A stretch of DNA of 64,000 nucleotides from Eledone cirrhosa. Taxonomy: Eukaryota. The DNA lies in contig OZ024753.1 in assembly GCA_964016885.1 (NCBI GenBank), positions 37,076,001 to 37,140,000 on the forward strand, written 5' to 3'. Made by a program: the position numbers and the translations under genes. The notes below the pieces were generated by a model. That model was not told the origin of the DNA and did not search any database. It saw nothing but the letters and a program-made list of their open reading frames with translations. Shown piece after piece: positions 4,402 to 61,628 of the stretch (position 1 is its first letter; every line of letters starts with the position of its first letter).

Positions 4402-4849
4402 TTTCCCTAAATGTTGGCTAAATCCAATAAGCTATCTTTTTAACAATAAAATGCCTGACTTCCTGCTGTTTCAGAATAAAGCAATTGCTGCGGCTTGTAT
4501 CTTTGTTGTTACTGTTTAGCTCAGGTCAACGATGTTTAGATAACTTTATGATGAAAGAAATTCCAGCGGCGACCATCTTAGGCATTTACGATTACATTAT
4601 TCGAATATGTGTTTTTCCACGACTGTAGGATGTGATTTGGGAGATTACCTACTATTTTCAGCACATCGAGAAACCACAGTCTATGATCATTGGTATGTCT
4701 GCATTTTTGTTGGTGTTTACAGTGGTAATCGGGAATTGGGTTTCTTACTCTTGGGTTTCGTACATAAAATTATGATAGAAAGTTTTGCATCGTAAAACGA
4801 AAGGCAGTTTTAGGCAGTTCATTATCAAAGGGTTAAGTGTTTCAGAAAT

Positions 4850-5291
4850 GCTGGGTTTAACGTTGTAGTATAGTGGTGTGGTTTCATAAGTGCTGGGTAT
4901 AGTATATAGGGGTGAGGTTTAAGGGTGTAAAAGTTGACCACTAGGTTTCAAAAGTGCTGGGTATAGTATATAGTGGTGAGGTTTAGGGGGGGGGGGGTTA
5001 TAGTTGAGCCCTAGGTTTCAAAAGTGGTGGGTTTAGTATATAGTGGTGTGGTTTAGAGGGGTAATAGTTGAGCCCTAGGTTTCAAAAGTGCTAGGTTTCA
5101 AAACGTATATAGCGGTGTGGTTTAGGGGGGTAATAGTTGAACAAGCTGTCACTAATAACAGGGGGCGCAAGCTATCCTATCGCGATGTCATCTCCAGAGA
5201 TTCTGGTATTGAAATCCAGGACTTGGCAACGGCAATGAGCGACAGACCCACGAGGAGATCAATTGTTGAGTCCATTTCGACTGAGGCCGCC

Positions 5292-5325
<34 letters not shown>

Positions 5326-5405
5326 TAGTTGAGCCCTAGGTATAGTTGTAGTATAGTGGCGTGGTTTAAAGGGTAATAGTTGAGTCGTAGGTTATAGAAG
5401 TGCTG
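4850..5405. repeat. Degenerate ~60-bp minisatellite (host of the LINE insertion)
   Basis: Unit tagtggtgtggtttagaggggtaatagttgagccctaggtttcaaaagtgctggg. Confidence 0.8.
5141..5323 (+). mobile_element. 5'-truncated non-LTR retrotransposon end with (TGA)n tail and 9-bp TSD
   Basis: Open frame ..GRKLSYRDVISRDSGIEIQDLATAMSDRPTRRSIVESISTEAAG* followed by (tga)n. AATAGTTGA is duplicated at 5132-5140 and 5324-5332. Confidence 0.75.
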
Positions 5406-6310
5406 GGAGTGTAGGGTAGAGTTGTCATGTGAGTGAAGCAGGATAGTTGATCGTTGATCAGGCGATGTAGAGAGATAATTTAGGTGTTATTATAGTTTAG
5501 CAAACAGAAACGGGGAGTCAGATAATCACGTGTTTATTTTAGTATGTGAATACACACACATACATACACAGACACAGATTCAAACAAACACACACACACA
5601 CACACACGTACATACAGATAACCACAGAAATGTACAGACAAACGTACACACAGAACAACACTCACACAAATGTACAGACACACACACATACGTACATACA
5701 GATATAGATAAATGTACAGACAAACGTACACACAGAACAACACACACACGTACATACAGACAGACACACGCACACACACATAGACACACACACACACACT
5801 TAAGTATAGACAGAAAGTCATCCAACATGTTTTCCCATTATCAGTGACAACATCAACTGGAGAGCCCTAGGCAACATGACAGCCTGTATGAGATAGACCG
5901 ATCTACTAGAAAGAGCAGTTAAACATCTCTCAAATCACACCCTACTGGCTTAACAAATAACACATTGGATAAAGTAGCTCTAGATTTCCTACAAATTCGA
6001 AAAAAGGTGTGATGGTCACGTTTGGAAATGCTGTGATCATATCTTAGGGTTAAACATCAAGCAATAGACATTCGTCGGTTTCGACGATGAGGGTTTCAGT
6101 CGTTCAGTCAACTGGATGACCTTCTTGTTAAATTAATTTGATTGTAGTTATGTATTTCAAAGCCCTTATTTTAGTATATGTACTTCAAGAACATAACACA
6201 TAGCCAGCCTGGCAATCGAATTCCCAACCTCATGATTGTGAATTCAACTCTATAACAACTAAGCCATGCGTCTTCACATTACAGGTCTTTATACTCCTTT
6301 ATATTGTTTC

Positions 6311-6511
6311 GGGCGGTAAAATGGCCGAGTCGTTAGAACGTCGGATAGAATGCTTTGCAGTATTCGTTCCGACTTTCTGCTGAGGCCAACTTTTTTTTCA
6401 TCCATTTAAGGTCGATAAAAAGTACCAGTCAAGTACTGGGTCGATTCTTCCTCTATATCTCTTTCTCATTTCCTTTCTTCCATTCTCTCTATCCTTCTCA
6501 GGAAGAAATCT
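6311..6511 (+). mobile_element. SINE-A-related copy with alternative pyrimidine-rich tail
   Basis: SINE-A-like head and core, then a tail shared with 23662-23815 and 47643-47800 (minus). Confidence 0.6.
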
Positions 6512-6955
6512 AAACTCAACCGAACTCAACATTGAAAAGTCTTGATATCATATTAATTTCGCTTATGTTGATAATAAATACCAAGAAGATATAACAATAA
6601 ATAAGCAGATAAGATAGACAAATAACACAAATAACAAAGGGTTCATTGAGTTAAGTAGGGGCTGGGGTAGTTATATAGAAGGTGGGGTGGTTATGTATGG
6701 GGTGGGGTGATTATGAAGGGGCTGGGTGGTTATGTATGGGGTGGGGTGATTATGAAGGGGCTGGGGTTAAAATCAACAAAATCAAAGGAAAGTTCAATGT
6801 CTGTTAAAATGGCCAGACTAAATAAAAACGGTTTGAAAATAAGATGCAGGATATCGGTAATTCTGGGATGAAAGAATCTGTCTATAATGTCAGCTGTGAG
6901 ATTGTTGAACCGATAATATATATATATATATATATATAATGCGTGTATGTATGTA

Positions 6956-7031
6956 CAGGGGTCCCCAAAAATGTATTCACACTTTGATTAGAATGTTGTT
7001 GTAGTGTGTATACATTGTTGGGGACACCCTG
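6956..7031. mobile_element. ~76-bp Tc1/mariner-type MITE, TA TSD
   Basis: TA-CAGGG(T)GTCCCCAAAAATGTAT..ATACATTGTTGGGGACACCCTG-TA. Confidence 0.8.
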
Positions 7032-7044
7032 TATATGTATGTGC

Positions 7045-7082
<38 letters not shown>

Positions 7083-7838
7083 GGCTTTTGAACCGATATA
7101 TTATATATATGTATATATGTGTGTGTGTATAAATAAACACACAAATATTTATACATATATACATATGTATATGTGTATTATGTATTTGACCATCCGATAT
7201 GTTGTTTAACGGTTTCTTTTTTTTCATCTCCCCTTTTCTTAAAAAAATATTTCACCTAATCCAAACACAGAAACGTTTAGAAGAATCTGTTCGTGTATTA
7301 TATATTAAACTAACTCCCACTCTTTACCTGCCACACTGTGCTCAGGATGTATACTCCTTCTTCAGCCCATATGTTAATTCTTTCTCTATCACATTCTCTT
7401 ACTATTCCCCCCCTCTCTATATATATGTATATATGTTGTCAAACGTGACATCGGAGCACCCAACCAACATATCGTCTATTTATTTGTTAAACAGAAGAGA
7501 AAGAGATGAAAAAAATGATGTTTGAAGTGTAAAACAGAGATAAAAACGAATCATGTGTATTGAATGAGGAAAAGGAGGAAAAAATTGGTGATATATAAAA
7601 TCACACACACACACTCACACAAACACACACGAATGCATGCACACGCACACACACACACACGAATGCATACTCACGCACACACACATCAACGCACATATAT
7701 ATATATGAACGCTCCGGAGCACACAAACATACAACGCACATGTAAGCAGAAACGCATAAACGCATATACATACACATATACATATGGCCAGACACACACC
7801 CATACACGAACGTACATGTAAGCAGATACGTGTACGCG

Positions 7839-7950
<112 letters not shown>

Positions 7951-8575
7951 CATAGATAGAAAGCGATTTACGATTGAGTGGTGAATATATATTTATAATA
8001 AACAAAGTATGATAGAGATGACACGCAAATACAAGCACTTGACACGCCATGTGTTGGCTTAAAAAACAAAGCTGTGTGTGTTTAAGTGTGTAGTTGTTGT
8101 AACTGTTGTTGTTATTGGCTAACCCCAGTTCAGTTGGGACTGTTTTGAAATATGATAAAACTAGGTTCAAGATATGGCCACCCATACTTTCGCTGAGATT
8201 ACATTATTCAATGAGTTTCCCACCCCCTTTTGAAGGCGATGTGTAATTTGAAGGAAGTTTATCTCCTATATTTAGCAATTTAGATGATCCCTCGAACGTG
8301 TTCGTCTCTAGTGAAGTGTATGTGTATGGTCAGGTGTATGGTGAGGTGTAAAGTACTATGAGAAAAGTTAGTCAACATATTTGACTTGTTATTGTCAGTT
8401 GCAGTTACATTAAAAACGTTCGTTGATTCCTCGTATATATGTAAAACTGCATAGTACCAATGATAGACCCTGGTCTCGCTAACTCACCCCCTCCCCCTCC
8501 TCAGCTATGCACACCAGAATACTTACCGGCTTTCCTTACCCAACTTGATAAAAAAATTTTTTTATTTTTCTGCAG

Positions 8576-8705
8576 ACTTCCAGCCTTCCTCTTTCTCCGA
8601 ACTTTGGAAGAGAGGAATGATTCTTCAAACAAAGAAATCTGGTCCGAAAGCTTGCGACAAAATGGACGCCGTTAACTGTTAGTTCCCAGCGTCTCTTCAA
8701 TATTG
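8576..8705 (+). other. Candidate non-coding (UTR/lncRNA) internal exon, 130 nt
   Basis: Strong acceptor tttttatttttctgcag and donor TTG|GTAAGT around unique, higher-complexity sequence. All three frames contain stops. Confidence 0.45.
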
Positions 8706-22320: not shown

Positions 22321-22351
<31 letters not shown>

Positions 22352-22436
22352 AAAAGTTCTATTTAAATTGTTGGGATACAACAAGCAAATATTTTTATAA
22401 CTGATATAAAGCATTCAACGAATATTTGGAGTAAAA

Positions 22437-22679
22437 ATACGATATTAACAAATGGAAATTATATTTATAAAACCACATTTATTTCATTATACATATTTCA
22501 AGGACACCAAGTTAAATTATGGTGTGCTTTATAATATAGATCAGTTTTATAAATAAAACTGATCTATATTATATTTTATCTGATGAAAGCACACCATAAT
22601 TTAACTTGGTGTCCTTGAAATATGTATAATGAAATAAATATGGTTTTATAAATATAGTTTCCATTTGTTAATATCGTAT
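22437..22679. repeat. Nested inverted repeats (94-bp arms plus a 42-bp inner hairpin) carrying an H3 hammerhead
   Basis: 22437-22530 is the reverse complement of 22586-22679. The inner palindrome spans 22531-22572. Confidence 0.85.
22573..22635 (+). ncRNA. Type I hammerhead ribozyme (family H3) inside an inverted repeat
   Basis: attttat-CTGATGA-aagcacacca..tggtgtcctt-GAAA-tatgta-TA-atgaaat. Helix II differs in sequence from the 61317 copy but still pairs. Confidence 0.7.
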
Positions 22680-23333: not shown

Positions 23334-23551
23334 TAGGAACAAGTATGACCCCGACGGCAGAGTTCAAGCCGTTTCGACGGCTAATTCTTTTTTATTTATT
23401 TATTTATTTTTTTAGTCCAGAATTAGCCGTCGAAACGGCTTGAGCTCTGCCGTCGGGGTCATACTTGTTCCTATTACCCACTCTACTACCCTAAGTATTG
23501 AGTACTTTGGTGCGTTATAGTCCATCTGGTTCCTTACCACATTTCCTTCGT
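23334..23551 (+). mobile_element. Family H2 fold-back element (hammerhead 3' half plus tail)
   Basis: Arms 23334-23388 and 23419-23473. The right arm reads gtc-GAAA-cggc-ttgagctct-gccg-TC-gggg. TA-flanked. Confidence 0.65.
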
Positions 23552-34811: not shown

Positions 34812-34856
34812 AATATTGAACTAGTTTCGTTGTTGTTACAACTCATCAGCAATATT
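34812..34856 (-). ncRNA. Minimal type I hammerhead ribozyme (copy 1)
   Basis: Minus strand AATATTG-CTGATGA-GTTGT-aaca-ACAAC-GAAA-CTAG-TT-CAATATT: intact core, 5-bp helix II, palindromic helix III, 7-bp helix I, GUU triplet. Confidence 0.8.
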
Positions 34857-35278: not shown

Positions 35279-35323
35279 AATATTGAACTAGTTTCGTTGT
35301 TGTTACAACTCATCAGCAATATT
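35279..35323 (-). ncRNA. Minimal type I hammerhead ribozyme (copy 2)
   Basis: Identical to 34812-34856, 467 nt away. Confidence 0.8.
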
Positions 35324-52785: not shown

Positions 52786-52821
<36 letters not shown>

Positions 52822-52917
52822 AGAGTTCAACAAGATTCAATGAATACATCAAAGAATGAGTTTTACAATAGATTGGAAGCACTCTACAGTAAAAATATTT
52901 TCCAGAGTTATTAATAT

Positions 52918-53092
52918 TAATTCCAAATATTAACAAAATAGATATTCTTGTGATCAATTATATTTTATTATACATATTTCAGTTATATTTTATTATATAT
53001 ATTTCAGTTATATTTTATTATATATATTTATATAAAATATAATAAAATATAATTGATCACAAGAATATCTATTTTGTTAATATTTGGAATTA
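52918..53092. repeat. Inverted repeat (~55-bp arms) with an inner 25-bp unit x3 matching the H3 hammerhead 3' half
   Basis: Arms 52918-52972 and 53038-53092. The reverse complement of the inner unit is GAAAtatatataataaaata. Confidence 0.75.
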
Positions 53093-53105
53093 TTATATAT
53101 ATATA

Positions 53106-60929: not shown

Positions 60930-61316
60930 AGTCGAGGCCCGACAGCCGAGCTCTTGCCGTTTCAGTTGTTAGTTCCGAACTTATTCTATCCTGATTCATA
61001 TATTGTCCTGTAGAAGCCAATGCTATATAAAAGAATGATATATATATATATAAAGAGGGTGTGGTAAGATACCAGGTGGACCATGATGCATCAGAGTACT
61101 CAATACTTAGGGCTCCGGCCGTTTCGACAGCTAGATCTGAACTTCAATGTAAAACTTAAATAATTATATATATATATATATATATAATTTGTCATATATA
61201 TATAGTTTGTCATGTTAGTACTTATGGTATATAAATATTGAGTTTTGTTGTAATTAATCACTGCCAAGACTGGAATTGAGCCATCAGCACAGTTGAGGTA
61301 TGTCACACATCAATTT

Positions 61317-61388
61317 ATATATTTTATCTGATGAGGACGTACTGAAAAAACAGCACAGTACCTTCGAAATATATATAATAAAATATAT
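61317..61388 (+). ncRNA. Type I hammerhead ribozyme (family H3)
   Basis: atatattttat-CTGATGA-ggacgtactg..cagtaccttc-GAAA-tatata-TA-ataaaatatat: 11-bp helix I, 10-bp helix II with one mismatch and one G-U, palindromic helix III, AUA triplet. Confidence 0.8.
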
Positions 61389-61447
61389 TTTGATTACATT
61401 GAATGACTATATTTATTAATATTTTGAATTAATATATATATATATAT

Positions 61448-61628
61448 ATACAAGTTAATATAAATTAATATATGATAAACACATAAGTGTTTGTATTGTA
61501 AAAGACGAAGTTAGCTAGAATGAAATAAACTAATCCAAATGAATATAGTTTGCCTGTCTCGATAACTTCGTCTTTTACAATACAAACACTTATGTGTTTA
61601 TCATATATTAATTTATATTAACTTGTAT
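61448..61628. repeat. Perfect ~66-bp inverted repeat beside (TA)n
   Basis: 61448-61513 is the reverse complement of 61563-61628. Confidence 0.85.

Follow-up and report, generated by a model that had tools for sequence, protein, structure and literature searches.

Does a hammerhead ribozyme whose helix III resembles the TA repeats around it use its own cleavage to aim an element at such repeats? The question is raised by a motif at 61317-61388 in the window, the 64,000-nucleotide stretch of the Eledone cirrhosa assembly analysed here (contig OZ024753.1, positions 37,076,001 to 37,140,000), where the first-pass annotation saw a complete hammerhead and proposed that cleavage leaves a (UA)n 3' end free to anneal to genomic (TA)n tracts. 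We believe, at a probability of roughly 85%, that the motif is a type I hammerhead in a truncated, 239-nt end of a Hydra-clade Penelope-like element (PLE), that it likely cuts only as a dimer, and that copying of the element likely starts about 50 and about 145 nt past the predicted cut, so that the cut is not the source of the end that lands in (TA)n.

The ribozyme itself is the part of the earlier claim that stands most simply, in that every part of a complete hammerhead can be located in the sequence:

61317 to 61327, plus strand: 5' arm of helix I, A and U only, from sequence and fold
61328 to 61334, plus strand: catalytic core CUGAUGA, from sequence
61335 to 61365, plus strand: helix II, made of 3 bp, a C·C mismatch, 6 bp and an 11-nt loop, from alignment and covariation
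61366 to 61368, plus strand: core GAA, from sequence
61369 to 61376, plus strand: helix III palindrome ATATATAT, 2 bp as a monomer and a predicted 8 bp between two molecules
61377, plus strand: unpaired A17, assigned by its position within the hammerhead fold, with the predicted cut between 61377 and 61378 at an AUA triplet
61378 to 61388, plus strand: 3' arm of helix I, from sequence and fold, forming 11 A-U pairs

The cut is placed after A17, at the AUA triplet, by the NUH rule. The CUGANGA and GAA core, the U16.1-H17 step, helices I and II and the termini at helix I are those of a type I hammerhead, and the 9-bp helix II carries a single C·C mismatch. The 72-nt fold is computed at -11.3 kcal/mol (z -2.38; equalled by 3 of 200 shuffles), and in the best monomer fold helices I and II are formed while helix III is open. 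Besides this copy, a descriptor scan of the window returned the 22572-22636 relative and two hammerheads that belong to another family; an Rfam search of the window returned nothing at the gathering score. Across the 3.0-Gb genome, a tight family pattern finds 21,362 exact matches, against 0 for a reversed-pattern control, and the motif is thus abundant far above chance. Among the sequencing runs listed for it none is of RNA, which has no bearing on its expression. Judged on its sequence, the motif at 61317-61388 is a real type I hammerhead. The relative that had been noted near 22573 likewise has an intact hammerhead motif, at 22572-22636, and the helix I said to be conserved between the two differs in extent, with 11 bp in the 61317 subfamily and 8 bp including a G·U at 22572.

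Other hammerheads are present as well. Two copies of another type I motif with an ACTAGT helix III lie 467 nt apart on the minus strand, at 34812-34856 and 35279-35323, and look like a tandem retrozyme-type unit. Elsewhere in the genome, one subfamily (loci L068 and L153-L182) has T, A, G or C at core position 7, a position that hammerheads tolerate. A hammerhead of another family, on the minus strand near 1241 of locus L005, has an unrelated helix I and a 10-nt ATATATATAT helix III, so that TA palindromes recur among the hammerheads of this genome.

Helix III had been described as a (TA)n microsatellite, and this description has to be given up. Rather than a pure repeat of variable length, it is a palindrome fixed at 8 nt in which length changes are rare; it is pure TA in 7,174 of the 21,362 pattern matches, and the other 14,188 (66%) carry ATATGTAT, as does the 22572 relative, a sequence that remains self-complementary through G·U. 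The suggestion that the palindrome permits dimerisation is, as a prediction from computed folds, borne out. For the 61317 copy the active dimer is computed at -28.2 kcal/mol and two active monomers together at -15.6, and the 8-bp intermolecular helix is retained when the dimer takes its best fold, as would be expected of a dimer hammerhead with a short palindromic helix III that is unstable as a monomer and forms 8 bp as a dimer. The 22572 copy behaves differently, its active dimer (-23.6 kcal/mol) being outscored by another dimer fold (-26.1 kcal/mol). PLE hammerheads are reportedly also treated as dimers by Lunse et al. 2016. Dimer cleavage through a short palindromic helix III is, in the accessible parts of PMC4209133 and PMC6765202, the published view of PLE hammerheads, and on the computed folds the 61317 hammerhead would likely cut only as a dimer through its 8-nt palindrome.

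At the same time, the helix III duplex is weak. The AUAUAUAU and AUAUGUAU duplexes are computed at -3.2 and -2.2 kcal/mol, weaker than four published Hydra palindromes (-4.9 to -9.7 kcal/mol), PLE hammerheads are described as cutting poorly in vitro (PMC4209133, available text), and in many subfamilies positions 10.1 and 11.1 form an A-U or G·U pair or do not pair, all of which would suit a relic that has lost catalysis and is retained only for protein binding or as a promoter structure. We nonetheless regard such a relic as unlikely, given that tens of thousands of copies, across subfamilies with a diverged helix II, combine an intact core and helix I with a helix III that is self-complementary, a count to be read with the qualification that the searches fixed the core and so do not themselves measure its conservation.

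Helix II provides the evidence for selection on structure. The first-pass annotation called the helix II of the relative completely different, which overstates the divergence: both copies are built alike, with 3 bp, a C·C mismatch and then 6 bp, and of the 9 pairs 6 differ between them in both bases, 1 in a single base and 2 not at all. The conclusion drawn there, that the structure is under selection, fares better, as does the proposed comparison of helix II across copies for compensatory change. In an alignment of the 61317 copy with 17 natural copies, picked mainly from 136 clustered copies and spanning subfamilies, 92.4% of cells pair, and both sides are changed in 7 of the 9 helix II pairs over these 18 chosen representatives. 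Double-changed cells between subfamilies number 28 in helix II, versus 9.8±2.3 in shuffles with none of 500 as high, although the 18 rows are related and the shuffle counts are hence not probabilities; the number of double-changed pairs, taken alone, is not above shuffles (129 of 500). Variation in helix I across the same rows consists of G·U pairs only, and the two helix III pairs are invariant.

What, then, carries this ribozyme? The features that bear on the answer, with sites A and B denoting two end positions discussed below, are:

61197 to 61435, plus strand: 5'-truncated 3' end (part of the pseudo-LTR) of a putative Hydra-clade PLE, ending at site A
61432 to 61450, no strand: (TA)n tract that borders end A; the 4 nt with which it begins are inseparable from the element's own last ATAT
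22546 to 22679, plus strand: sister-subfamily copy with the intact hammerhead motif at 22572-22636, ending at site A in (TA)n
22349 to 22557, minus strand: inverted partner arm of the 22546 copy, carrying a tail of about 90 nt to site B

The 239 nt at 61197-61435 are 95% identical to the 3' end of two longer copies, L031 and L032, which belong to the subfamily of the 61317 copy and align with each other over 2,372 nt at 88.9%, from broken RT/EN frames through the hammerhead. Open frames of 750 aa (L116), 699 aa (L118) and 542+233 aa (L117) lie upstream of other family hammerheads, and the frames of relatives show RW(H/R), DKT, YRDD, CxCX5C, YIG, CxxC and CxH, with CCHH absent. DKT is present in all three frames that cover it; RWH in L117 and RWR in L103 and L010 have a third residue other than the K of an RWK-type motif; CxCX5C is found in four of the five frames that cover it, being altered in L116; and CDLC and CRH in the L117 frame are the CxxC and CxH around the endonuclease E and N. 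In the accessible text of PMC8557442, DKT, RWx, CxCX5C and CxxC/CxH in the absence of CCHH are diagnostic of the Hydra clade. By its motifs, the element thus has the one frame of an EN+ PLE, with an RT and, C-terminally, a GIY-YIG-type endonuclease, linked to a hammerhead. In addition, it has the pseudo-LTR-ORF junctions, inverted 5'-truncated partners and one-sided tail of PLEs and the insertion into (TA)n of the Hydra clade. Atlas neighbours carry HTH_animal, GIY-YIG and RVT_1 and serve as leads only; Pfam matched neither the RT nor the GIY-YIG family in 10 natural frames, and a PDB sequence search gave weak, unrelated matches only. On its motifs, the family, with more than 20,000 copies, is assigned to the Hydra clade; it is a new and very abundant family of a clade already known. 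Its layout reads hammerhead, end A, hairpin 1, end B, hairpin 2, ATG, RT/EN frame, a 3' region of 1.2 to 2 kb, and hammerhead again. Copies that span the junction into the ORF give 64 matches, 34 of which keep the whole hammerhead upstream. The inverted arm at 22349-22557 lacks 13 nt, including most of CUGAUGA.

Most copies are short with no ORF nearby, and a 239-nt copy might by itself be taken for a free non-autonomous hammerhead repeat, a retrozyme or SINE, unrelated to the coding element. Indeed, a type I hammerhead in short non-coding copies is also what metazoan non-LTR retrozymes have, and those, as described in the accessible parts of PMC7229834 and 10.64898/2026.07.22.740005, are tandem non-coding units, whereas the 61317 copy is a single ragged fragment of a coding element and is continuous with an ORF in its relatives. 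The 5' ends are ragged, longer copies continue into the RT/EN frame (as the continuity of L031 and L032 demonstrates), and the 61317 locus holds no head-to-tail array of the unit, all of which makes a free repeat most improbable.

The surroundings of family copies hold other repeats. The 61317 copy's terminal (TA)n is followed immediately by a 72-bp inverted repeat of a different family (61448-61628), which is also found beside the copy in L117. At L033, a tandem array of a unit of about 430 nt (4533-8641) adjoins a family copy.

If cleavage aimed insertion, the ends of copies should meet (TA)n at the cut, a test that the first-pass annotation itself put forward. They almost never do. Among 32 copies from the first 30 pattern loci, (TA)n is met at +48 to +60 in 21 and at +142 to +157 in 9, the remaining 2 being one that continues into the ORF and one with an internal TA run; the 61317 copy itself ends at site A, 58 nt beyond the predicted cut. 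In the genome as a whole, helix III runs into (TA)n in 62 matches, compared with 21,362 that read through the predicted cut (about 0.3%), and 72 matches start from (TA)n at helix III, compared with 34,418 to the downstream stretch (about 0.2%, an approximate ratio between patterns of unequal length). The read-through and end-mapping patterns require the 3' arm of helix I and are blind to copies ending at the cut, and the count of 62 comes from a separate pattern. When copies are sampled by downstream sequence alone, 0 of 29 start at the predicted cut, and aligned mapping places 2 of the 64 ORF-junction copies within 5 nt of it, no more than scatter. A class of cleavage-defined 5' ends, suggested when 3 of the first 31 junction copies seemed by eye to start near the cut, was rejected once all 64 had been mapped by alignment.

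The 62 and 72 matches, together with an inverted pair (L113/L114) that ends in helix III on both arms, are the evidence for the idea that cleavage generates a (UA)n 3' end which anneals to (TA)n in the genome and so aims insertion, a process that we now consider extremely improbable and, as the main route, largely refuted. Besides being so few, these matches have the wrong composition: the G of ATATGTAT is kept in only 8 of the 62, versus 66% of intact copies, and 5 are of a G subfamily yet have their junction ahead of the G, an indication of microhomology upstream of the cut. Among 12 of these loci examined individually, slippage has expanded the repeat in 2, where the element carries on beyond it, and in 2 more the run enters the 3' end of another copy. 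Insertion into (TA)n is also seen in published Hydra families, whose helix III palindromes are something other than TA repeats, and the Hydra-clade supplement reports a (TA)n preference in all but one family (PMC8557442, in the parts available). Copies almost never end at the cut, and the cut is therefore unlikely to aim the element at TA repeats. On the ends as mapped, ribozyme cleavage appears to set neither end of the copies, and the counts indicate that the likeness of the palindrome to the (TA)n target is incidental to targeting. Rare mis-starts at helix III may make up a small residue, to which the one inverted pair could belong.

Two further observations concern helix III. At L112 and L115 its TA run is joined to the 3' end of an opposite copy, and helix III may on occasion be a small insertion target itself. 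Within the window, a third family member (52817-53097) is an inverted pair of one site-A and one site-B arm. Both arms begin close to helix III and are separated by a stuttered 25-nt piece, and the plus-strand arm starts about at the predicted cut; it is a single case.

Downstream of the hammerhead, each of the two ends is placed immediately 5' of a small hairpin. Junction copies read in the order given above, with a middle hairpin between hairpin 1 and end B, and hairpins 1 and 2 both fit RCTC…YYGAGYRC, 83-98 nt apart in 13 copies. Of 100 short-ended copies, 85 stop -2 to +8 nt from hairpin 1, and 40 of 56 tailed copies stop 0-11 nt from hairpin 2, positions that are blurred by AT microhomology. 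The 28 inverted pairs comprise 21 A+B, 5 A+A and 2 A+junction, with 0 B+B; the 22349-22679 locus is an A+B pair, and its minus-strand arm contains the first hairpin:

22411 to 22432, minus strand: tail hairpin 1, the RCTC…YYGAGYRC motif with point changes

The 3' flanks of both hairpins pair in an 11-bp long-range helix with 4 of its 11 pairs changed on both sides, in a leader structure derived from the same 14-row alignment that was used for its covariation. The hairpin stems are invariant across the 14 junction copies, which represent about two lineages, so that hairpins 1 and 2 draw no direct support from covariation. A search for a junction copy of the 61317 copy's own subfamily gave 0 matches, and hairpin 2 is thus seen only in sister subfamilies. 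With these qualifications, the hairpin pair beside the two ends likely marks where copying starts.

The same motif is not confined to this family. In the window it has 8 matches (1.35 expected; two overlap) and 3 matches (0.61 expected) beside other families, and such hairpins occur in other (TA)n-bounded repeat families at 23480, 36905, 52231, 53226, 53382, 57557, 21593 and 61789. By eye, the motif is also seen at the ends or starts of Hydra-2_Amil, Hydra-1_Ajap, Hydra-2_Ajap and Hydra-1_Crog, from coral, sea cucumber and crustacean, and is not seen in Hydra-1_Amil or Hydra-1_Obim, both of which end close to the hammerhead.

A general pathway for copying can be proposed. The GIY-YIG-type endonuclease would nick (TA)n, as has been proposed for the Hydra clade, and the element's protein would bind both tail hairpins. 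Target-primed reverse transcription would then start inside the RNA, a few bases 5' of each hairpin, with 3-5 nt of AU microhomology helping each start; one start per DNA strand would give an inverted pair with one tailed arm, and 61197-61435 and other short copies would be the product of early stops. As template, the pathway would use either RNA left uncut or RNA that had been cleaved as a dimer and re-joined into a circle. In the anole PLE, according to the accessible text of PMC11167929, reverse transcription begins internally at two sites that correspond to the tail, and the main template is RNA that has not been cut. Going one step further, the two hairpins about 95 nt apart and their covarying long-range helix may form, in the leader of Hydra-clade elements, a two-fold RNA scaffold that holds a dimeric RT-endonuclease, each subunit starting 5' of one hairpin and one serving each strand of the (TA)n break, a proposal that we would back and doubt in equal measure.

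One history for the template, which follows the model in the available part of PMC4209133, is that dimer cleavage of tandem transcripts releases a unit that is re-joined as a circular template, with the cut site restored and no mark left on the ends. The compensatory changes that keep helix II would fit such a circle, and the circle would be stable to a lone hammerhead whose helix III has 2 bp. In addition, copies longer than 2 kb end at site B, and for these a start at the hairpins needs a tandem or circular template. Linear templates could, however, come from tandem genomic copies, and hammerhead mutants of the anole PLE insert normally in vitro, with no reads ending at the cut in the accessible account (PMC11167929). 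We regard the circle as a tentative possibility, somewhat doubtful on present evidence. It is compatible with copying from the twin hairpins, the difference being one of template history only, and the DNA does not separate an uncut template from a re-joined circular one.

Much of this is familiar. In its RT and C-terminal endonuclease motifs, its type I hammerhead near the 3' end, its palindromic helix III and its (TA)n target, the family is like the Hydra clade of Craig et al. 2021 (PMC8557442), and in its inverted truncated copies and one-sided tail it is like PLEs in general (PMC8557442). So far as the accessible literature goes, a helix III palindrome, a hammerhead close to the 3' end, cleavage predicted to need a dimer, tails and insertion aimed at (TA)n have all been published for the Hydra clade or for PLEs, and a PLE that ends in a hammerhead, has a palindrome for helix III and targets (TA)n is ordinary for the Hydra clade. 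The hammerhead sequence differs from that of Hydra-1_Obim, an octopus member in PMC8557442, so that this is a separate family, and the likeness of the frames to the Hydra-1_Obim protein was judged by eye. Compared with the published clade, as described in the available parts of the same paper, helix III here consists of A-U pairs throughout or of A-U pairs plus a single G·U, the long helix II contains a C·C mismatch, the 3' region is 1.2-2 kb, and the tail is about 90-100 nt versus the 30-40 bp described. The copy number here exceeds 21,000 exact motif matches. The accessible text of PMC8557442 makes no mention of twin tail hairpins, and neither they nor the family were found described in the literature searched, as far as it could be consulted outside subscription papers and Repbase.

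The dimer hammerheads of PLEs (Cervera and de la Pena 2014, PMC4209133; PMC6765202, both in part) are also of type I, with a long helix II and a short palindromic helix III, and include many solo copies from truncated PLEs (PMC4209133); unlike them, the palindrome here resembles the element's own target repeat. A closer parallel for the ends is PAc, a Poseidon element of the green anole (Frangieh et al. 2024, PMC11167929, in part), where two internal RT starts downstream of the hammerhead bound the tail, the target is AT-rich, both strands are extended and uncut RNA is used. PAc belongs to another clade, its hammerhead overlaps the start codon, and its reverse transcription starts within the ORF, in an AC-rich stem-loop that shares no homology with the target (PMC11167929); unlike in PAc, both ends here lie before the ATG, in AU microhomology, each preceding one copy of the hairpin motif.

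The genome counts extend the in-vitro result from the anole, that cleavage does not set copy ends, to a second clade through DNA evidence. The scaffold, if true, would account for the Penelope inverted pair with its one-sided tail, and would leave a copy that ends at site A dead as a template, but not a tandem or circular RNA. If the twin-hairpin reading is true, it would name the RNA signal that fixes both start sites, and the long-unexplained tail and inverted insertion of Penelope would become testable with a 170-nt RNA.
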